DNA from: Dictyostelium discoideum
Taxonomy: Eukaryota
Assembly (NCBI GenBank): GCA_000004695.1
Contig: CH709148.1
Span: forward strand, 1-11,086
Length of the DNA stretch: 11,086 bases
Direction: 5' to 3'
The notes below the pieces were generated by a model, which had not been told where the DNA came from, did not search any database, and saw only the letters and a program-made list of their open reading frames with translations. Positions within the stretch are counted from its first letter, which is position 1; every line of letters starts with the position of its first letter. This document shows positions 1-11,086 of this stretch, piece by piece. The position numbers and the translations under genes are program-made.

Positions 1-363
1 ATATCATACTATATATGTGTAAAGCAGTTCATCTTCTTCATCGTTAATTAATTCTTTACTAGAATTTAATATCTTTGGACGATTGAATATGTTTACAGTA
101 TAGTTTTTATCTTGAACATTTGTTAACTCTGTTGGAGTATTAAATTCAATCTTCTGTGGTTTATACTTCATCTCTGATTCAACAGCTTTTGGAATTGGAA
201 CGGTTGTATCAGGAACTAGTTTTATACCATATGAGTCTTTGACGTATTCTTTAAGTTTGTTGATGTTTTTATGAACATCATGTTGCTGGCTTTGTTGATG
301 TAACTGTTTAACAATGTTTTGATTATAAAAAGAGTTAAGAGTATAAAGTGAATCTTTGTTCAC
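1..363 (-). CDS. pro (retropepsin) N-terminal region, partial; same frame as the NC ORF after a single TGA
   Basis: AVESEMKYKPQKIEFNTPTELTNVQDKNYTVNIFNRPKILNS is shared with ORF 9297-9755, which continues to the protease active-site DTG (in LILDTGSNV). 714 and 363 are both 0 mod 3. Confidence 0.6.
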
Positions 364-453
364 TGGGTAATCATTATCCTCAAGGTGATGATATTGTGAA
401 ATTTTATAATTTTTATTTAAAATCTTTGACTTGGACTCATCACCTTCATCGAG

Positions 454-714
454 TCATTGTTGCTTTTTGGCTGATGGACCTGGATTGGCTTTGGCATCGA
501 CCGGATCAATTCTACATGTAGATGTGGAGTGATTTGATTTACCACAATTGAGACAGTAGCCTTTGCTCTGACGGTAAACGATGAAACTGCTTCTTATCTT
601 TTTGAGGTCTACCTTAGAGTCTTTTCTTATTTCAGGTAATATTGCAGCTCTAATCTTATCAGCTTGAGCATCAAAGGAATTCCTGTTATTGAGAGTTATG
701 ATTTGGAGTAGCAT
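454..714 (-). CDS. gag nucleocapsid segment with CCHC zinc knuckle (CLNCGKSNHSTSTC = C-X2-C-X4-H-X4-C)
   Basis: The zinc-knuckle motif is read directly from the ORF translation. It is in a different frame from the capsid ORF and overlaps it over 686-714, implying a frameshift or degeneration. It ends with TGA at plus 454-456. Confidence 0.75.
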   Translation of the reverse strand: MLLQIITLNNRNSFDAQADKIRAAILPEIRKDSKVDLKKIRSSFIVYRQSKGYCLNCGKSNHSTSTCRIDPVDAKANPGPSAKKQQ

Positions 715-1246
715 GATTCTTTTTTAATGGAAACTTCTCATCATTATTCGATGCGGAATCGGAAGGTCTTCTTCTCGAGAACTTATCAGCATTGTTAAGA
801 ACCAACTCGGTGATGGTTTCACGACATTCGGTGATATCGGTTTGAGTGTTGAGTTTGATTGCAATATCAGTTTGTAACCAGTCTGGTACAACCATCTTTA
901 ACAAAGCAAGGATATTATTATCTAAAATTGATCTTAGATACTCTAATTGAACTTCAGCAGTACCATGGATGAGATACACCGGATTAATTACATTGTGGTA
1001 ACTCATAATGGCTTCGATGTTTTTTATAACATCTTGGGCTGAGTAGCAATTACGATGGTTAATAGCTTCGACTACTTTAGTGTTGGCAGCTTCGTAGTCA
1101 GTTTTGAATGGAACCAAAGTCTTGGATCTAAAGTTACGGTGTATAAGCTTCTTCCAATGTTTCACCTTCAATTTTATCGTTGTTCTTAACTGATTCATTG
1201 TGGGTAGGTTGAAGCAATTGAAATAATTCATTTGATGCAGCACCAT
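686..1246 (-). CDS. gag capsid-like central segment (same frame as 1274-1624, separated from it by one TGA codon)
   Basis: ORF track. Frame arithmetic: 1624 and 1246 are both 1 mod 3. A diverged copy lies at 4110-4563. Confidence 0.55.
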   Translation of the reverse strand: MVLHQMNYFNCFNLPTMNQLRTTIKLKVKHWKKLIHRNFRSKTLVPFKTDYEAANTKVVEAINHRNCYSAQDVIKNIEAIMSYHNVINPVYLIHGTAEVQLEYLRSILDNNILALLKMVVPDWLQTDIAIKLNTQTDITECRETITELVLNNADKFSRRRPSDSASNNDEKFPLKKNHATPNHNSQ

Positions 1247-1273
1247 TGTCCATAAGTGGTCTTCAAGGTTGGT

Positions 1274-1624
1274 TCAACACCATTCTGGGAGCAGTGGATG
1301 GTAGAAGAGATTCATGAGAGAGTGACAGCAGGTGGCAGCATTTTTTAAAGCGTCAATGGTTTTAGCTTCAATGGAATTGGTCTTTGATTTCTTTGGCACT
1401 TTCTCTCTGACTTCGACGTCGGATACATCAGTGCTTTCAGTTGAATAAATTTCATCATCAACTTCAGTGGGACGAAGAGTCTTTTTTGATTTTACTTGAA
1501 CAGTAATAGCATCATCGGAGGCGGTTGTCACTTCAGCGGCACGTTTGGCGGTGGAAGACACTTTGGCTTTACGGATGGCTTTCTTTGAAGGAGTAGTAGT
1601 TGATGACATGACTTTCACCAACAA
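1274..1624 (-). CDS. gag N-terminal segment (likely true start MSSTTTPSKK...), terminated by in-frame TGA
   Basis: ORF track. Basic/acidic low-complexity N-terminus typical of retroelement Gag. The stop at plus 1274-1276 is TGA, and the next ORF is in the same frame. Confidence 0.55.
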   Translation of the reverse strand: MLVKVMSSTTTPSKKAIRKAKVSSTAKRAAEVTTASDDAITVQVKSKKTLRPTEVDDEIYSTESTDVSDVEVREKVPKKSKTNSIEAKTIDALKNAATCCHSLMNLFYHPLLPEWC

Positions 1625-1640
1625 TTATATATAAAATTTA

Positions 1641-2300
1641 TTAAATATAATTTAATTTTATAATTTAATTTTTTAATTTAATTTACATAATTTAATTATA
1701 TAATTTAATTTAATTTATTTAATTTAATTTAATTTAATTTTTAATTAAATAATTAAATATAAGTATTAATATATGTTAACTGTTATTCCACTAATATATT
1801 TTTATTGTGGTGTCTTTATATTATTTAATTGATAATAAATATTATCTTAAATTATTTTAATTATAACAATGCATCAATATAACTGTTATTCCACTAATAA
1901 TTTATATTGTGGTGTCTTTATTTAACTGTTATTCCACTAATAATTTATATTGTGGTGTCTTTTTTAACTGTTATTCCACTAATAATTTATATTGTGGTGT
2001 CTTTATTTAACTGTTATTCCACTAATAATTTATATTGTGGTGTCTTTGTATTTGAGCATTATTATTAAATTAATTGATACAATCTTGTTTTATATTACTT
2101 TATAAAAGATGCATGTTTACAATGTGAGTAGGAAGTGTCGTTGTACCGCCTAAGCAGTACAGCGTTAATCTTGCAAACAGAAGGGCCATTGTAATGCATT
2201 TTTATTTTGTTTTAAATACTACTGTTATTCCTCTAATCTGAAGAGTCGACTTCTTCATCATGAGGTGTCATTGTATACGAAATATAAGGATTGTATCTAA
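1641..2300 (-). repeat. Putative LTR / upstream non-coding region of the Skipper-like element, internally repetitive
   Basis: Lies immediately 5' (on the minus strand) of the candidate PBS and gag start. Contains (AATTT)n-like low complexity at 1625-1780, a 43-bp tandem array, and diverged partial units at 1778-1822 and 2219-2280. Boundaries are not determined. Confidence 0.3.
1881..2051. repeat. Tandem array, 4 units of 42-43 bp (AACTGTTATTCCACTAATAATTTATATTGTGGTGTCTTTATTT)
   Basis: Direct reading: units start at 1881, 1924, 1966 and 2009 with only 1-3 substitutions. A diverged fifth unit lies at 1778-1822 and a half-unit relative at 2219-2280. Confidence 0.85.
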
Positions 2301-2952
2301 TTATTTGTTTTAATGTATTTGTTTTATGTTAAAATTAGAAAAAAAAAGTGTAAAAGTCACTCACACTAATCTTCAATCCATTGTTCAATCTTTAATCAAA
2401 CAGTCCAATCTTTAAAGTAATGTTTTTTAATATGAAGGATAGAAAGAGTGAAAGACTAATATAATAAAAGTAAACATACATAAAAGAGATAATTAAAAGT
2501 AAGGGCGTTATGAAAACTAAACCAAAAATCAGAATTTTTATTATTTTTTTTAAATTTTAATTTAATTTTATTTTATTTAATTTAATTTTTTATTGTTCAA
2601 CTGAAAAAATAAAAAATTAAAAAAATAAAAATTAAAATTTAATGAAATATTTTTACATGGAGATGCGCGAATTTGTTACGTTGTTGAGCTCATACTAACT
2701 TTAAATTAATTTAGTTTTGAGTCTCTAACAACTATAAAAAGAAACTAGGTTTCTAATTCAAACTCAGTAATAAATATATACAAATAATAAAAACACGATA
2801 GGGCTACTGTCATCAATTAAATATATGTGTACATTTATTTCTTAAATAATTAATTTTAATAATAATAAAATAAATAAATTCAGTAATAATAAAACAATAA
2901 TTAAATTAATAATATAAATAACCAAATTTTATTAAAAAATTTTTTTTAAAGA

Positions 2953-2960
2953 ATGTCAAC

Positions 2961-2996
<36 letters not shown>

Positions 2997-3192
2997 TAAT
3001 AATAATGAAGATATTGATAACGATGAATTTCAACAACAGGATAGTGAGGAACAACAACAACAACCACAGGTATCAACATTCAATGAACAGCAACGTCAAA
3101 TAAGGGAACAGCAGCAGGTAATAGATAAACAAAATCAACTTCTTCAACAACACATTCAATTAATAAATCAACAATCTAATAACAAAATATAA
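2953..3192 (+). CDS. Small N/Q-rich ORF (79 aa: 15xAsn run, poly-Gln, coiled-coil-like QQ repeats); possible short gene or first exon
   Basis: ORF track. AT-rich upstream region with TATAAAAAG at about 2735. Codon usage (aat, caa) is typical of Dictyostelium. GTAA-type donor-like site at 3118. No recognisable domain. Confidence 0.35.
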
Positions 3193-3195
3193 AGA

Positions 3196-3699
3196 GATAT
3201 GGGATGCAAATCAAGTATTTAAGCACTTATCTACTATCAAAGTCATCCCCAAGTACACATACACTGCACTATTAAACAAGACACTTGTACTCTGTAAAAT
3301 GTTTGGTTTAGCATATCATCAGACTTGGTGAAGTGGTCTTTCAAAGGTCTCATTATTACTCCTGACTCAATCAAAGGTCCAGTTATTAATTGTAATATCA
3401 ACACTCTCAAAGTCAGGCATTGATATTGTCAAGTTCAAATCTCACTCTACCCGTTTCGCTATGGCTTCTCTGCTGTTGTCCAATAACGTTCTGTTTCACG
3501 TTGTCAGAAGATGGATCGTTGGAAATAAAATGATACTGTAGAGACCTTCTCCGAAAAAAGAATCATTGGTGAAAAATCTGGTGGTTTCTTAAATACTGTC
3601 GTCCAAATTTCATAATATATATATATATATGATAATATAAATTAAAAATTTAATTTATTAAATTATATTTTATATTAAATATATATATATATTAGTCCC
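3196..3699 (+). other. Unassigned GC-richer non-coding stretch immediately inside an ITR copy; possibly the degenerate 3' internal end of a DIRS-1-like element
   Basis: Only short frameshifted ORF pieces on the plus strand (about 40 aa each). Position directly adjacent to the inner end of the 3700-4035 ITR copy. No direct homology visible within the window. Confidence 0.2.
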
Positions 3700-4035
3700 A
3701 TCCCACCCGCCCTTAGTCGGAATTCCATAAATCATATTGTTTTAGTTTTTAGTGCCACTATTTATACGTTTTTATTTTCTTAAAAATTTCGCAAAACTCA
3801 AAAAAATAAGTGTTTTCGACCCTTCACAAATTTCGTGCATAGTGTCGGTTCGGAATTTTTATGTTTTTGGACCTTGTGCAATGATAGCGTCATTGTGCCG
3901 GTTCGAAATTTTTACTTTTCTTTCGAAAATTTTTTATTCTTCGAATGTTCTAGAACATTCTAAAAAATTATCTTAAATATTTGGGAAATTCAAATAAATA
4001 AATGTTATTCATAATATATATATATAATTAATATA
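3700..4035 (-). mobile_element. DIRS-1-like inverted terminal repeat copy (right-ITR-type inner end), outer end at about 4035
   Basis: Reverse-complement match to 10006-10390 over about 300 bp and direct match to 9121-9344. Contains tandem nGAAnnTTCn heat-shock-element units. The outer end carries a (TA)n run. Confidence 0.6.
3937..3960. promoter_or_regulatory. Heat-shock element (TTCTTCGAATGTTCTAGAACATTC; 4-5 contiguous alternating GAA/TTC units) inside the ITR
   Basis: Direct reading. The same element is at 9325-9344 and 10067-10092. DIRS-1 ITRs are known heat-shock promoters. Confidence 0.65.
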
Positions 4036-4109
4036 AATTCGTTTTTCAATAATCAACAGTAGTCTCTGATTTCACGGGAAACTTCTCATCTTTTTCAGAT
4101 CTGAATCAC

Positions 4110-4563
4110 TTATTAATTCCGGCAATATTGCATCTATAATCTGATCAGCTTGAGCATTTAATGAATTCCTACAATGAGGGTTATTTGGAACATCATGATT
4201 CTTTTTCATTGGAAACTTCTCAGCAGTATTAGATGCCGAATCTGAAGGTCTTCTTCTTGATAACTTGTCAGCATTGTTAAGGACAGTCTGGTAAAACCAT
4301 CTTTAGCAAAGAAAGGTTACTACTATCTAAAATTGATCTTATATACTCTAATTAAACATCAGCTGTATCATGGATGAGATACACCTGATTAACTAACTCA
4401 TAATGGATTCGATGTTTTTTAGGACGAGTAGCAGTTACGATTGCTAATAGCGTCCACTTCTTTAATGTTGGCAGCTTCGTAGTTTTGACATGGACCAAAG
4501 TTTAAAGTTAAAGTGGATAAGCTTCTTCAAAGTTTTACCTTCAATTTTATCGTTGTTATTAAC
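4110..4563 (-). pseudogene. Degenerate, internally deleted copy of the Skipper-like gag capsid region
   Basis: Collinear DNA similarity to 610-1195 with several deletions and many substitutions; no intact ORF. Confidence 0.6.
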
Positions 4564-4786
4564 TTAAAAATCAAAAAGTTTAAACCTCGTCATCTGGATT
4601 GGCTAAAACAGGTTCAAATAATGGAGATGGTACCCAAAAACACCCATTTAGGTTGGGTTCTTAGTTATCGTTAGAGAATACAATTATTCGAGACGATCCA
4701 AATAATTAGTTTCATAAATTGGTCAAAATCAATTCATAATATAATAAAGGTAATGTGGGGAAAAAATCTATTTGATTTTTCCAAAA

Positions 4787-5069
4787 CTATACCATATTAA
4801 GATGGTAAGTGGAAGTAATGTTAGTCTAATCAAAAAGAGGTTGATTTCAAAAGAGATGAAGAACCACTTTCACAAAATCAAAGCCAAGGTTGAATTCCCG
4901 CTACTAGACGTCAAATAAGAGTTTGTTGAACAAATCAATATACAAGTTAACAATGAAATTCATAGCTTCTTTATAAAAGAATTGGATATCATTTATGTAC
5001 TTTTCGGTAATGAAATACTTAAGGACTCTATCATTAACCAAAAAGATAAAATAATCAAGTTGGATAATA
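4787..5069 (+). pseudogene. Skipper-like protease (pro) fragment on the plus strand, truncated at 5069 by the TIR element
   Basis: 4811-4867 is about 93% identical to the reverse complement of 9351-9407. The translation ...GSNVSLIKKRLISKEMKNH... then *EFVEQINIQVNNEIHSFFIKELDIIYVLFGNEILKDS contains a retropepsin hhG-x-(D/N)-x-L-like motif. One in-frame TAA at 4916 and a degenerate DTG region. Confidence 0.55.
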
Positions 5070-5815
5070 CACAGCTAAGAAAAATGCACCTTTAAAGCAA
5101 ATTTAAAGCAAAGTTGATTTAAATTGGATTTAAATTGAATTTAAAGCCGCGTTTAAAAAATTCATTTTTAAGGTAATTTTTAAGGTAATTTTTAAGATAT
5201 TTAAAAATGCCTTTAAAATTTGCTTTAAATTAAATTTTTAAGCAATTTTAAAGGTGATTTTAAAGGTAATTTTAAAGGTGATTTTTAAGGTAATTTTTAA
5301 GATAATTTTTAAGATATTTAAAAATACCTTTAAAATTTATTTTAAATTAATTTTAAATAGGATTTAAAGTAGATTTAAAGTAGATTTAAAGTGAATTTAA
5401 ATTTCCTTTAAACATAAATTTAAGGTTTTTAATAAAAAAGATCTAATTTTAGAACAAAAAAATGGGGATAAAATATTCTATCATTTTTAAATTTTTCATC
5501 AAAGCAATCAAATGGTGTAATGGTTGATGAGACTATCCTTTGATAGAGGGTCGGGGGATCGAATCCCTTTTGGTAATTTTTGAAAAATTAAAAAAAAAAT
5601 TTAAAAAATTTATCCGTTAAATAACGGCTTCGAACTCAGGACCTCGCTTTTAAAGCGATTAAAAAGGTAATTTTAAAGGTAATTTTAAAGGTAATTTTAA
5701 AGTAACCTTAAAAATTACCTTTAAAATTACCTTTAAAATTGCTTTAATTCAGGACTTTAAAGCAAATTTAAATTTAATTTAAAGCGAATTTAAAGGTGGT
5801 TTTTTCTTCGCTGTG
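5070..5815 (+). mobile_element. Unclassified non-autonomous TIR element, copy A (746 bp), with subterminal GGTAATTTTAAA / ATTTAAAG repeats and a central tRNA-like module
   Basis: Terminal inverted repeats: CACAGCTAAGAAAAATGCACCTTTAAAG versus the reverse complement of the end, CACAGCGAAGAAAAAACCACCTTTAAAT. A 97-98% identical second copy at 6852-7610 has different flanks. The flanking dinucleotide TA is found on both sides. Confidence 0.5.
5505..5575 (+). other. tRNA-related pol III promoter-like module (box A TGGTGTAATGG at 5513-5523; box B GGGATCGAATCCC at 5555-5567); pseudo-tRNA, not foldable as a canonical cloverleaf
   Basis: Box A matches 9/11 and box B 10/11 of the consensus (TRGCNNAGTGG / GGTTCGANTCC), spaced about 43 bp apart. 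TGGTGTAATGGTT resembles the D-loop of Glu/Gln-type tRNAs. The acceptor and D stems do not pair. Confidence 0.3.
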
Positions 5816-5956
5816 TAGTTCGATCCAGAATAATTTTAAACAGTCAAATCAATTACATTGTAATGTAAAATCTCCATCAATTATTAATATTAATTAATAT
5901 TATCATTATATAGGGTATTATTATTATTAATATTATTTTAATATTTATAAAAAAGG

Positions 5957-6648
5957 CAACTAAATGACCGATTACTTTGAATCAATATCAATTATTGTTT
6001 GTAAATCACCAATAATTACACAATCATCCTCATCATCACTGAATGTGATGTATAAGTCATCAAGAAGCTCAATCATCAAACCTATAAAGCATTTGACCTC
6101 CTTTTGATCAAAAGGTGGTATATTATTGATGAGTTATACTTTCCCATTTTTGTAAGAATGAATTCTGATGATTCTTTATACTGATCATAGAGAAGCCAAA
6201 CGATGTGATTACTGAATACATGGATATCGCCACATTTTTTACAACTCTTGTTTCTATTTGAATATACTAATTTTGTCTGATACCAATCATATAAACAATT
6301 GAGTTAACACATATAAAGGTTTTATCTTCTTTGATATTGTTAAAATAACCCATCACACCATTGTACTGGTCTACATTCGAGATCAATTTACTCATCATAA
6401 ATGACCCTTTGGTGTCTTCAGATTTTGAAAGAATCACCACAAAGGCATTTTTTGGTTTGTGATGAGGAGGTTGTTGGGGACATAAATGATGAATGTGATG
6501 AAGTTGTTGAGGTAGTTGTTGAAGAGGATGTTGATATTGATGGTTTGGTTAGTGAAGATGTGGTAAATGTTGTTGTTGTGGTTTTTATTGTGGATTTCAA
6601 AAACTCTTCATTAATCAATTGGTTGTTTTCAACCAAAGGAATTAACAT
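5957..6648 (-). pseudogene. Degenerate minus-strand gene remnant: T/S-rich ORF (6648-6418) followed by frameshifted ORF pieces down to 5957
   Basis: ORF track 6418-6648 (M...TTTTTFTTSSLTKPSISTSSSTTTSTTSS...). Manual translation of 6417-5957 gives four contiguous open pieces in shifting frames (MMSKLISNVDQYNGVMGYF..., YIQIETRVVKNVAISMYSVITSF..., MIELLDDLYITFSDDEDDCVIIGDLQTIIDIDSK*). No domain recognised. Confidence 0.3.
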
Positions 6649-6680
6649 TTACAACTTCTTTTTATTCAATGTTTTTTGGA

Positions 6681-6717
6681 CAATAATAATGATAATAATT
6701 ATAATTATAATTATAAT

Positions 6718-6765
<48 letters not shown>

Positions 6766-6776
6766 TATTATTATTT
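6681..6776. repeat. (AAT/ATT)n microsatellite, about 30 units, preceded by (ATAATT)n
   Basis: Direct reading. It generates the poly-Ile run in the spurious plus-strand ORF 6401-6805. Confidence 0.9.
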
Positions 6777-6851
6777 ACCAAGTTTCAATCTCTTTTTATC
6801 TCTAATGTCTTTTTCTTCTTTTTCTTTTTCAATTTGTTTTCCAATTTGAAT

Positions 6852-7610
6852 CACAGCAAAGAAAAATGCACCTTTAAAGCAAATTTAAAGAAAAGTTGAT
6901 TTAAATTGGATTTAAATTGAATTTAAAGCCGCGTTTAAAAAATTCATTTTTAAGGTAATTTTTAAGGTAATTTTTAAGATATTTAAAAATGCCTTTAAAA
7001 TTTGCTTTAAAATAAATTTTTAAGCAATTTTAAAGGTGATTTTAAAGGTGATTTTAAAGGTGATTTTTAAGGTAATTTTTAAGATAATTTTTAAGATATT
7101 TAAAAATACCTTTAAAATTTATTTTAAATTAATTTTAAATAGGATTTAAAGTAGATTTAAAGTATATTTAAAGTGAATTTAAATTTCCTTTAAACATAAA
7201 TTTAAGGTTTTTAATAAAAAAGATCTAATTTTAGAACAAAAAAATGGGGATAAAATATTCTATCATTTTTAAATTTTTCATCAAAGCAATCAAATGGTTT
7301 AATGGTTGATGAGACTACCCTTTGATAGAGGGTCGGGGGATCGAATCCCTTTTGGTAATTTTTGAAAAATTAAAAAAAAAATTTTAAAAAATTTATCCGT
7401 TAAATAACGGCTTCGAACTCAGGACCTCGCTTTTAAAGCCATTAAAAAGGTAATTTTAAAGGTAATTTTAAAGGTAATTTTTAAGGTGATTTTAAAGTAA
7501 CCTTAAAAATTACCTTTAAAATTACCTTTAAAATTTTTTTAATTCAGGACTTTAAAGCAAATTTAAATTTAATTTAAAGCGAATTTAAAGGTGGTTTTTT
7601 CTTCGCTGTG
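6852..7610 (+). mobile_element. Unclassified non-autonomous TIR element, copy B (759 bp), direct orientation relative to copy A
   Basis: Collinear with 5070-5815. Differences are a few substitutions and one extra 13-bp subrepeat unit. TIRs are CACAGCAAAG...CTTCGCTGTG. The flanking dinucleotide AT is found on both sides. The tRNA-like module is at 7286-7356. Confidence 0.5.
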
Positions 7611-7619
7611 ATTTATCCT

Positions 7620-7925
7620 TGTCCAAAACATGTCTGCTACTGTTAACAATATTTAAGCCTCTAGTAGTTACTCTGCCTGAATCCTTTGATTTAAGAATGA
7701 AATCAATGGAGGATCAAATCAACAACATTTCCTTAGCCTTTACCATATTCATGAAAGAAACTATGTTCTCTTCAAATATGAACTCTCCTAGCCAACGTTC
7801 TCATGATGACTCTGACACCGAGAATGAAAAAAATAAAGAAAAAAGTAACAATGTCGATGTTCCAACTGACTATCAATTATCCTATTCCTTACTTGTTCAA
7901 GGTTTATTCGTCGAAAAAAGAATGT
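7620..7925 (+). pseudogene. 5' fragment of a DIRS-1-like ORF1, lacking its ITR and abutting TIR element copy B
   Basis: The translation ...ESFDLRMKSMEDQINNISLAFTIFMKETMFSSNMNSPSQRSHDDSDTENE...NNVDVPTDYQ is collinear with ORF 10436-10702. Homology ends at about 7925. Confidence 0.5.
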
Positions 7926-9039
7926 AAGAAAGAACACACAGGAATCGTCAGAGCATTCACTGACTATATTGACTTCAGAATACTTATAAATCCACCATTC
8001 TGAACGTCAATGGAAGCAATGAACTGATTCAGAATTGGTTGGTTTATCGTGCCTCTATCGGGATGTATCCCTAAGGCGAGATTAAAGAAACTGAACTGAA
8101 TGCCGCTAAAGCAAATTCATGCAGCTGATTTTAAAACACCGGTAATAGTGGAGATGGATACCAATCATATGATAAGGTTGATGAGGATGTTAATATAGAA
8201 GTGAAGACAACCTTAATATAACATATGTTAGAGTCAAGGAATACGATAAAGGAAAGAATAAATGAGGTCATTTTAAAATTATTGACGAAAGAGTAATCAA
8301 GAAGAGAAGGACAGAAGGTCATCAAAGTGATAATGAGGATAACAATAGCGATGATATCAGTGGCTACGACAGTGGATAAAAGAAGGTGCATCATATGGGC
8401 TTCTTTTGTGCTCATCTTCCTTCTCTTCTTCTGTCGAAGAGAAGCATTAAGCTCAGGCATCTCCTGGACTCCCTGTTCGAGATTCCACTTACAAGTGAAC
8501 TTCAATGAACATATAATCAATGCCTGTCTCAGCAAGATCTATGAGAGAGAATGGGAGACACAGTACCCCAGAGCATGAGAATTATTAATAAGCACGGAGA
8601 GAATTATTAATACCTTCCTCTTTCTCAGATTGGTTGTTATGAAGGGTTCAAGGTCCTACCTTATCATTTAGGACTTTGTTGGTGTCTTATCAATAAAAGA
8701 TATTGGATTTGGATGCATCAATACTATTCTCTTTAATATGGGTCCTTATTACTATGTTATGGACTTTTTCTACAATGAAAAGTATACTTTTCATTGTAGT
8801 AAAAGTCCAAGAAAAGTTTATGTCCTCTCCGACTGATGACGACAACAACATATCAAACGAGGTTATAGACAGTGGTTCAATCTCAGTAAGATAGGAGGAG
8901 GAGGAGACTGTAGGAAGAGGTGCCTTGAAAGTCTTGTTCAAGGAGGAATCGATTTTGAGAGCAAGACACGTAGACTAAACCAGTGAAGGGTACCTGAACG
9001 TTAAGTAATTAATATATGTCACATATTACAGAGGACAAT
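7926..9039. other. Unassigned GC-richer sequence with only short overlapping ORFs on both strands; probably a degenerate repeat-element interior
   Basis: No ORF over 134 aa, no recognisable motif, and a base composition unlike the AT-rich intergenic DNA here. The right end abuts the inner end of the ITR copy at 9040. Confidence 0.2.
8761..8808. repeat. 48-bp near-perfect palindrome (22-bp arms GGACTTTTTCTACAATGAAAAG / CTTTTCATTGTAGTAAAAGTCC, 4-nt TATA spacer, 1 mismatch)
   Basis: Direct reading. It explains the mirrored peptide WTF(S/T)TMKSILFIV in ORFs on both strands (8703-8894 plus, 8690-8941 minus). Confidence 0.85.
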
Positions 9040-9344
9040 TAATAAAGAGAAATAATTATTTGTATAAAATTTGTGTGTGTATCTTAAATATATAGGAAGA
9101 ATTCCCAAATAAAATAAATCAAATTGTTTTAGTTTTTAGTGTCACTATTTATACGTTTTTATTTTCTTAAAAATTTCGCAAACTCAAAAAAAAAAGTGTT
9201 TTCGACCCTTCACAATTTCGTGCATTGTGTCGGTTCGGAATTTTTATGTTTTTCGACCTTGCGCAATGATCGCGTCATTGTGCCGGTTCGAAATTTTTAC
9301 TTTTCTTTTGAAAATTTTTTTTTATTCTTCGAATGTTCTAGAAC
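9040..9344 (-). mobile_element. DIRS-1-like ITR copy (left-ITR-type inner end), truncated about 65 bp at the outer end where it joins the retrotransposon pro sequence
   Basis: Reverse-complement match to 10070-10385 and direct match to 3728-3958. Heat-shock element at 9325-9344. The junction reads GTTCTAGAAC|GTGGTTC. Confidence 0.6.
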
Positions 9345-9928
9345 GTGGTTCTTCATATCTTTTAAAATCAACCTCTTATTGATTAAACTAACATTACTTC
9401 CAGTATCGAGAATTAATTTGAATTGTTTTTCTTTGGAATGAGAGTTAATTATAATCTTGGGTTTATCCATGTTTTCTCTGTTTGGAACGATTAAACATTT
9501 GAGAGTCGGAATGAGAGCAGTATCACTTGTACCAGTACTATGTAATAATGAGATGATTGGTTTGTTTGTTTCTTTATCGAATTTAATTGTGTAAAGCAAT
9601 CCATCTTCTTCATCGTTAATTAATTCTTTACCAGAATTTAATATCTTTGGACGATTGAATATATTTACGGTATAGTTTTTATCTTGAACATTTGTTAACT
9701 CTGTTGGAGTATTAAATTCAATCTTCTGTGGTTTATACTTCATCTCTGATTCCACAGATTTTGGAATTGGAACGGTTGAACTAGTTTTATACCATATGAG
9801 TCTTTGACGTATTGTTTAAGTTTGTTGATGTTTTTATGAACATCTTGTTGCTGGCTTTGTTGATGTAACTGTTTAACAATGTTTTGATTATAAAAAGAGT
9901 TAAGAGTATAAAGTGAATCTTTGTTTAT
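9345..9928 (-). pseudogene. Second copy of the Skipper-like gag C-term / pro N-term, including the retropepsin active site (LILDTGSNVSLI); broken by an 8-bp deletion
   Basis: 9591-9928 matches 18-367. ORF 9297-9755 carries DTG. The deletion of TATCAGGA relative to copy 1 near 9770 shifts the frame. The final 15 residues of that ORF are read from ITR sequence, not from protease. Confidence 0.7.
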
Positions 9929-10040
9929 ATTATCATATATATATATATATATATATAATGAATAACATTTGAATTTCCCAATTTATATTATCATATATAT
10001 ATATATATATATATTATGAATAACATTTATTTATTTGAAT
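9929..10040. repeat. Junction with a tandemly duplicated ~50-bp ITR outer terminus (TATATTATCA(TA)nATGAATAACATTT...GAATTTCCCA appears twice)
   Basis: Direct reading; (TA)8-9 microsatellites are present in both units. Confidence 0.6.
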
Positions 10041-11086
10041 TTCCCAAATATTTAAGATAATTTTTTAGAATGTTCTAGAACATTCGAAGAATAAAAAATT
10101 TTCGAAAGAAAAGTAAAAATTTTGAACCGGCACAATGACGCGATAATTGCGCAAGGTCGAAAAACTGAAAAATTCCGAACCGACACTATGCACAAAGTTG
10201 TGAAGGGTCGAAAACTCTTATTTTTTTGAGTTTTGCGAAATTTTTAAGAAAATAAAAACGTATAAATAGTGGCACAAAAAACTAAAACAATTTGATTTAT
10301 TTTATTTGGGAATTCCTCCTATATATATTTAAGATACACACACACACAAATTTTATACAAATAATTATTTCTCTTTATTAATTTTTAATATTATTATTTT
10401 TCTCATATTATAATTTTAGATATCAACAATAAAATATGTCTACCACTGTTAATAATAATGATGCCTCTAGTAGTAGTACCTCTGCCTCTAATAGCGCTGA
10501 ATCCTTTGATTTAAGAATGAAATCAATGGAGGATCAAATCAACAACCTTTCTTTAGCCTTTACAAGATTCATGAAAGAACCTATGTTCTCATCTAATACC
10601 AATTCACGTAGCCAACCTTCTCATGATAACTCTGACACCGAGAATGAACAAAGTGATGATGAATCAAGTAACAATGTCGATGTTCCAACCGATTATCAAT
10701 AATCCGATACCTTACTTGGTCAGTACAAACATATGGTAAACAATCAAGGTTTACTCGTCGAAGAAGAATGTATCCTCAAGAAAGATGAGATATCCGAATT
10801 GAATAAAGTATTCAACTTTCCATCTAACTTCCAAGTGAATGTCGCTCCATTCGGTACACCTGAAGGTATTACTGTATCATCCAACGTCAAGAACAATGAT
10901 ACTGAATTGTTGATTGTTGAAAAGCGAATCAACGATAGCTTGAAACCTTTGCTTCTCATGTCAAGTATGTTATCATCTGATAGCTCTAATGTCGATGTAG
11001 AACTTATTAGTTACTTAACTCAGAGTGCAATCATCTTAGCTGTTAATGCTCAAGCATCGCTTAGTCGTGTCCGTCGTAACAACATC
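10006..11086 (+). mobile_element. Left end of a DIRS-1-like tyrosine-recombinase retroelement: left ITR (10006-10390) plus the start of ORF1, running off the window
   Basis: ITR with heat-shock element at 10067-10092. The ORF begins 45 bp after the ITR. Orientation is opposite to the other two ITR copies. Confidence 0.6.
10436..11086 (+). CDS. DIRS-1-like ORF1 (gag-like), open to the window end apart from one in-frame TAA at 10700-10702; possibly a pseudogene
   Basis: ORF track 10436-10702. The same frame stays open from 10703 to 11086 (...GLLVEEECILKKDEISELNKVFNFPSNFQVNVAPFGTPEGITVSS...). Relative to the 7620 copy there is a 24-bp in-frame insertion and TTA changed to TAA. Confidence 0.5.

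Follow-up and report, generated by a model that had tools for sequence, protein, structure and literature searches.

The window analyzed here, the whole 11,086-nt stretch (positions 1 to 11,086) of contig CH709148.1 from the Dictyostelium discoideum assembly GCA_000004695.1, is a mosaic of decayed D. discoideum transposable elements and comes from a D. discoideum transposon cluster. Large parts of it align at 85–95% identity to DIRS-1/Skipper clusters in D. discoideum assemblies, and a fragment of the first DIRS-1 open reading frame (ORF1; 10703–11086) matches solely Dictyostelium proteins, at identities of up to 96%. Flanked by Skipper and DIRS-1 sequence lie two copies of a short element bounded by terminal inverted repeats (TIRs), each with a central module that resembles a tRNA gene. 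This module is probably the decayed and partly mirror-duplicated relic of a tRNA gene, passively carried by a DNA transposon whose outer shell comprises the following features.

5070–5815, plus strand: copy 1 of the element, a non-autonomous TIR transposon of 746 bp with termini CACAGC...GCTGTG, inside a Skipper retrotransposon fragment
5068–5069, no strand: left TA of the target-site duplication of copy 1, with the right TA at 5816–5817
5650–5747, no strand: long right-arm hairpin of copy 1, with 49-nt arms that are 88% complementary
6852–7610, plus strand: copy 2 of this transposon, 759 bp, with AT flanks at 6850–6851 and 7611–7612

The two window copies, which span a size range of 746–759 bp, share 98.7% identity. 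Their TIRs are long and imperfect, with element arms that pair over approximately 150–170 bp. Further copies were sought in eleven 20-kb loci of Dictyostelium assemblies (denoted here by L numbers), and the ~230 kb sampled contained three full copies, the two of the window included, and one truncated copy. The initial annotation had made its reading depend on the existence of other genomic copies, and these do exist: a full-length diverged copy, 83% identical to the window copies, lies at L003:17816-18556, and the truncated copy at L004:19655-19903. Additional fragments in the sampled loci are made of element arms alone. The insertion site of copy 1 is found empty at L002:12699/12700, where uninterrupted Skipper sequence carries a single TA in place of the TA-element-TA arrangement of the window. 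The L003 copy, flanked by an AA duplication, has its empty site at L008:17122/17123 in the same genome. For copy 2, no empty site was found. With its target duplications established by this pair of empty sites, the shell is truly a mobile DNA transposon, of the non-autonomous cut-and-paste type and from an orphan D. discoideum family.

The short element has no ORF longer than 37 aa. Look-ups of the 37-aa ORF inside it and of the AX4 protein P0070 returned no match. Sampled loci of D. citrinum (L005) and D. firmibasis (L006) contained no copy, 20 kb from each species being too little to show species-wide absence, and exact-pattern scans for the core of the element found no match in metagenome, prokaryotic or viral contigs, collections that hold no Dictyostelium DNA. 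We also considered whether the two direct copies in the window could be a pair of long terminal repeats (LTRs). This reading was rejected: the ends are not of the TG...CA type, no primer-binding site or polypurine tract is present, and each copy owns inverted termini and a flanking duplication.

A coding relative of the short element is present at L009:10742-15549. This 4.8-kb element has the same termini and 2-bp duplications and contains genes for proteins of 737 and 264 aa. The 737-aa protein, a transposase candidate, has 31 relatives, all from D. discoideum or D. cf. discoideum, which fall into two groups approximately 50% identical to each other; proteins P0082–P0112 (700–830 aa) show many invariant D/E residues. 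The family has no Pfam match and no PDB sequence match, and beyond D. discoideum and D. cf. discoideum no relative of it could be detected, in agreement with the observation that the DNA transposases of D. discoideum resemble no known transposases (PMC5633606). An AlphaFold model of the candidate, built from a 16-sequence alignment, was unusable (predicted local distance difference test, pLDDT, of 35). The marks of Tc1/mariner, TA target duplications and a DDE/D transposase domain, were not recovered: the duplications are TA once and AA once, and the 737-aa protein is without Pfam or PDB sequence match. The 4.8-kb relative, which has termini in common with the short element, presumably supplies the protein that mobilizes it in trans.

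Neither the L009 element nor the locus of a B-type gene of the family (L011) holds a match to the tRNA-like core, and the unique core of the short element is not derived from the 4.8-kb relative. At L011:16789-18834 we observed an internally deleted derivative of the coding element, ~2 kb long and with both termini kept; deletion derivatives do arise in this family, apart from the short form with the tRNA-like core. A right-arm fragment of a related element was also seen in D. cf. discoideum (L007:15385-15706), ending in GCTGTG and abutting DIRS-1 just upstream of ORF1, near the point at which the window's copy 2 meets DIRS-1.

Within the shell, the core of the short element contains the following features.

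5506–5576, plus strand: tRNA-like sequence of copy 1, a 71-nt near-cloverleaf (12.4 bits, full-length, with the Rfam tRNA model; found by ARAGORN at 80% thresholds only)
5513–5523, plus strand: A-box-like motif TGGTGTAATGG, which fits TRRYNNARYNG and is kept in all three full copies
5550–5565, plus strand: internal-type B-box-like sequence GTC-GGGG-GATCGAATC, with the GTC signature present and A replacing T54
5577–5581, plus strand: T5 run that immediately follows the tRNA-like sequence, in the position of an RNA polymerase III (Pol III) terminator, read from the sequence (T4 in the L003 copy)
5617–5659, minus strand: mirrored partial tRNA-like copy, from an anticodon-arm-like hairpin to the T loop, which holds two palindromes and a second TTCGAA motif
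5627–5642, minus strand: B box of the canonical internal type, GTC-CTGA-GTTCGAAGC, which fits GTTCRANNC at every position and has the GTC signature
7288–7358, plus strand: tRNA-like sequence of copy 2, the best-scoring (20.2 bits with the Rfam tRNA model; found by ARAGORN at 90% thresholds)
7410–7425, minus strand: B box of copy 2, GTCCTGAGTTCGAAGC

The initial annotation had described a box-A-like and a box-B-like motif about 43 bp apart, followed by two perfect palindromes and a second TTCGAA-containing motif. All of these lie in copy 1 at the places given, namely TGGTGTAATGG at 5513, GGGATCGAATCCC at 5555, CCGTTAAATAACGG at 5614, GGCTTCGAACTCAGG at 5626 and CGCTTTTAAAGCG at 5645, with 42 bp from start to start between the first two. 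In copy 2, two of the motifs are one base different (TGGTTTAATGG at 7295 and CGCTTTTAAAGCC) and the remaining three are unchanged, at 7337, 7397 and 7409; CGCTTTTAAAGCC is no perfect palindrome any more, and the description of both palindromes as perfect holds for copy 1 but not for copy 2. The sequence GTCNNNNGWTCRANNC occurs four times, against 0.03 occurrences expected from 200 shuffles. The A-box motif of D. discoideum tRNA genes is TRRYNNARYNG and the B box GTTCRANNC (PMC5391098), and the GTC of the internal-type consensus GTCnnnnGTTCRAnYC is a signature of B boxes internal to tRNA genes (PMC3159450). Each copy has one A box of the D. discoideum type that is followed 25–50 bp on by GWTCRANNC, where 0.007 such pairs would be expected per window, and in none of 1500 simulations did such a pair carry the GTC signature as well. 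The combination of motifs in the core is not due to chance.

The A box fits TRRYNNARYNG in all three full copies (TGGTGTAATGG, TGGTTTAATGG and TAGTGTAATGG), and its spacing of 33 bp to the B-like box lies within the 30–60 bp of D. discoideum A/B-box promoters. The plus-strand B-like box fails GTTCRANNC at T54, which is A in all copies, and has C56 intact. Position +1 of the module, seven bp upstream of the A box, is A, not the G seen in 83% of genes (PMC5391098). Nineteen nucleotides of the A-box/D-arm portion of the module (AAATGGTGTAATGGTTGAT) recur without a mismatch in other sequence context at L003:9760-9778 and L004:9759-9777, with a 55-bp terminal fragment of the element (L003:9515-9570) ~190 bp upstream of the match in L003. 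This may be the remnant of another, rearranged copy.

Scoring with profile models retains the box region, which in both window copies aligns with the Rfam tRNA model (RF00005) over its whole length (positions 1–71), but at 20.2 and 12.4 bits it stays below the gathering score of 29 bits. With default settings ARAGORN reports no tRNA genes, and the diverged L003 copy has no match to the Rfam tRNA model. The statement in the initial annotation that the core lacks a canonical cloverleaf fold is only half right. The sequence forms a near-cloverleaf, with six of seven acceptor pairs, all five anticodon pairs around the loop UUGAUAG and four T-stem pairs around AUCGAAU; the D stem has four of four pairs in copy 2 and three of four in copy 1, a G-G mismatch occurring in two copies. 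The structure is nevertheless sub-threshold, and its variable loop has 2–3 nt where a canonical tRNA needs at least 4 nt. Folding energies are no better than those of shuffled sequences (z from -0.15 to -0.46). No pair has changed on both sides among the three full copies; two stem positions vary, and some of their pairs are broken, with C, U or A opposite G at alignment position 31, and U33 is A in the L003 copy. The absence of compensatory changes and the loss of U33 in one copy argue that this is not a working tRNA. The core is a tRNA-like sequence below every curated threshold, and not a tRNA gene.

A resemblance this faint raises the possibility that it is a coincidence and that the core was never a tRNA gene. 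Apart from the sub-threshold scores and the poor folding, the A/T-rich acceptor "stem" could easily arise in DNA of 78% A+T, and scaling the E-value to a 34-Mb genome gives an expectation of about two chance matches at 20 bits. However, the E-value of 2.8 for the copy 2 match covers 4227 families and, divided accordingly, corresponds to ~7e-4 per window for the tRNA family alone. Moreover, A box and B box are found together with the GTC signature, the spacing and the terminator, and a second, mirrored copy bears a canonical B box. We consider a coincidental origin improbable.

The anticodon of the relic is ambiguous, because ARAGORN and Infernal place it in different registers. Infernal reads GAU; at the same coordinates, ARAGORN in standard mode reads TGA or TTGA, and in mitochondrial mode it reports copy 2 as mtRNA-Ile(gat). 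These registers bear on the origin of the module, which could have been a piece of mitochondrial DNA with a tRNA-Ile(GAU) gene, captured by the element in place of a nuclear tRNA gene. The anticodon GAU is unusual among eukaryotic nuclear Ile anticodons, and an A/T-rich acceptor stem would fit such a source as well. Against this stand the standard-mode registers and the GTC-N4-B-box signature and the A-box motif, which are of the nuclear-gene type, and a mitochondrial origin seems quite improbable.

Forty base pairs beyond the tRNA-like sequence, the core turns on itself. The two palindromes and the second TTCGAA motif are present as the initial annotation had it, but the annotation missed that they belong to a partial tRNA-like copy on the minus strand. 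The minus-strand stretch 5617–5659 aligns with the tRNA-like sequence of the plus strand over its 3' half (alignment score 27, versus 12.5 +/- 2.7 in shuffles; p ~0.001), and these motifs thus represent that sequence a second time, in mirror orientation, truncated at the 5' end and further decayed. The canonical B box of this copy (5627–5642) is conserved in the L003 and L004 copies as GTCCAGAGTTCGAAGC; no A box was found upstream of it, which makes it a solo B box.

The proposal of the initial annotation that a tRNA-derived module is embedded in a DNA-transposon shell was thus right, borne out by the TIRs, the 2-bp duplications with empty sites, the sub-threshold tRNA alignment, and the A box with its spacing. 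A short interspersed nuclear element (SINE) or retro-copied tRNA was rejected on account of the inverted termini and of the position of the module, which starts 437 bp into an element flanked by 2-bp duplications. One of the two roles proposed for the module, that of a Pol III-transcribed hybrid with a SINE-like head, finds no support in a module that sits mid-element, in an element that moves as DNA, with A54 in the B-like box and A at +1.

Several observations weigh against a purely passive cargo. Between the two subfamilies, identity is 93% in the tRNA-like segment, 88% in the part of the core immediately upstream and 83% over the element as a whole; the segment differs from the whole element with a binomial p of 0.016 and from the rest of the core with a Fisher p of 0.07. 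The longest run that is invariant in all three copies (35 nt) is exactly the tRNA-like 3' half, including the B-like box, and a 23-nt invariant run spans the minus-strand B box; none of the five substitutions disrupts the B-like box or the fit of the A box to TRRYNNARYNG. Selection on a promoter or TFIIIC-binding function would be expected to give such a pattern. Furthermore, no parental tRNA was identified for the relic. The conservation signal is statistically weak, coming from two lineages only, with other core segments about equally conserved.

The main alternative is that the module is still an active Pol III/TFIIIC site, with TFIIIC binding to the A box and B-like box, to the minus-strand solo B box, or to both. 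Such a site might produce a tRNA-sized RNA of ~75 nt ending at the T5 run, or act as a chromatin boundary of the "extra TFIIIC" type that is spread by the transposon. The A-box motif in all three copies, the 33-bp spacing, the intact C56, the T5 run directly 3' of the tRNA-like sequence and the minus-strand GTTCGAAGC, which fits GTTCRANNC with the GTC signature, are all compatible with activity, as is the coincidence of the B-box regions with the longest invariant runs. Loci with B boxes in the ribosomal DNA (rDNA) element, which have no tRNA homology, are used by TRE5-A. Pol III also transcribes eukaryotic initiator tRNA-Met genes, which carry A54; the B-like box need not be abolished by this base, and A54 is not decisive against it. 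On the other side, the plus-strand box does fail GTTCRANNC at T54, the +1 position lacks the prevalent G, the T run is reduced to T4 in L003, and the conservation signal leaves a Fisher p of 0.07. A solo B box, for its part, recruits the Pol III complex poorly (PMC5391098). On balance, continued activity of the module as such a site is a possible but unlikely reading.

The other role put forward by the initial annotation was that of a tRNA-gene mimic, a decoy or landing pad for the retroelements TRE5, TRE3 and DGLT-A. TRE5-A requires just an A/B-box locus competent for TFIIIC and TFIIIB, and no real tRNA gene, and the element does have A and B boxes at the right spacing. However, none of the three full copies carries an insertion 13–50 bp upstream or ~100 bp (40–150 bp) downstream of the module; all three are collinear from -50 to +150 around it, save for one 12-bp repeat-unit indel. 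Among real tRNA genes, 61% have a TRE, although the sample here is small, with three full copies of which those in the window are young. The truncated L004 copy does break off 21 bp 3' of the expected module end, but the DNA beyond the break occurs once in the ~230 kb sampled, and nothing therefore marks it as a transposable element. The decoy claim thus goes unsupported, and we regard a landing-pad role as very improbable.

With these alternatives weighed, the tRNA gene relic remains the reading we favor, with fair though not strong confidence. In the scenario we propose, a piece of host tRNA DNA would have been captured by the short element, giving rise to a core that consists of a decayed plus-strand copy of a tRNA gene and, 40 bp on, of a second, mirrored and 5'-truncated copy on the minus strand. 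The relics would yield no working tRNA and, because transposition depends on the termini, would have no role in it. The module would then lack a function of its own, although some residual TFIIIC or Pol III activity is possible, given the boxes that it retains.

Since the module looks like a decayed passenger, the practical value of this result lies in annotation. It accounts for the tRNA and B-box signal, below threshold, that comes back at each place occupied by the element, and 2-bp target duplications and a coding partner are now documented for an orphan transposon family. The biology of D. discoideum retrotransposons is organized around tRNA-gene-like landmarks, with tRNA genes and bare A/B-box loci serving as address labels for the safe integration of TRE5, TRE3 and DGLT-A. 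It is conceivable, though rather unlikely, that the A/B-box unit is in working order and is dispersed by the DNA transposon, which so constitutes a mobile entry site for TFIIIC and Pol III. If this were true, every insertion would create a new tRNA-gene-like chromatin landmark, which might act as a boundary, give rise to a small tRNA-like RNA upstream of the element hairpins, or offer tRNA-targeting retrotransposons a new safe landing site. A DNA transposon with such a label would link transposon systems that are separate otherwise, and could seed new Pol III/TFIIIC sites in centromeric clusters.

Several further observations concern the arms and surroundings of the element. The right-arm hairpins of the two window copies (5650–5747 and 7433–7542), of which that of copy 2 has one additional 12-bp repeat unit, show sub-threshold matches to microRNA (miRNA) precursors of MITE-type families (MITE, for miniature inverted-repeat transposable element): mir-548, at 42.6 bits, and mir-3938, at 40.6 bits. 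Transposons of the thug-S type are known to give rise to miRNAs in D. discoideum (PMC4894637). Adjoining the right end of copy 1, 28 bp of Skipper sequence (window 5816–5845) contain nine differences from the Skipper of the empty site, where the remaining flank is ~92% identical, and these changes yield a perfect B-box 9-mer, GTTCGATCC, at 5818. Between the two copies, the minus strand holds a decayed ORF (5960–6650) with frameshifts and stops and a Ser/Thr-rich N-terminal part, a portion of which aligns at 80% to L001:14842-15145. Tandem units of ~57 bp, the first partial and the next two full, were seen ~140–280 bp away from where the L003 copy is inserted (L003:18690-18840). Each terminates in an internal-type B box, such as GGTCACGGGTTCGATTCCC, and Rfam gives a weak match to the tRNA clan there (transfer-messenger RNA, tmRNA, 16.6 bits). 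These units, which are found as well at L002 ~17060-17125, L008 ~16860-16980 and L009:1-60, resemble the B-box loci of the rDNA palindrome.

Among known transposons, the family analyzed here is most readily placed within D. discoideum itself. A DDT family of D. discoideum DNA transposons, with DDT-A, DDT-B and a short DDT-S, was reportedly described by Glockner and colleagues in 2001. The family analyzed here is probably DDT and its short form probably DDT-S, with the thug family as the alternative. Both share the host species, the setting in DIRS-1/Skipper clusters, the TIRs and a transposase candidate unlike known transposases; here there are two coding subfamilies ~50% identical and a short non-coding form, which would fit DDT-A, DDT-B and DDT-S. 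In the literature searched, which did not extend to the 2001 description, we found no mention of a tRNA-like core in DDT or thug elements.

The module itself invites comparison with B-box loci outside tRNA genes, including those of the rDNA, some of which likewise combine B boxes with A boxes at tRNA-like spacing. The rDNA loci, however, possess a perfect GTTCRAnYC, a +1 G and demonstrated integration of TRE5-A, whereas the module described here has A54, an A at +1 and no integration in the copies at hand. With tRNA-derived SINEs it shares a tRNA-like part that contains A and B boxes and gives way to A/T-rich sequence, but it lies in the middle of an element that has inverted termini, a fixed 2-bp duplication and no tail derived from a long interspersed nuclear element, and that moves as DNA. 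In architecture, the element parallels MITEs and other non-autonomous TIR elements with an interior unrelated to that of the autonomous partner: it is short, has no ORF, shares only its ends with a coding element and is flanked by duplications proven by empty sites. The long internal hairpin with its matches to miRNA precursors recalls the relationship between MADE1 and mir-548. In contrast to classic MITEs, the element is larger (~750 bp), and what fills it is a tRNA-gene-like inverted partial duplication.

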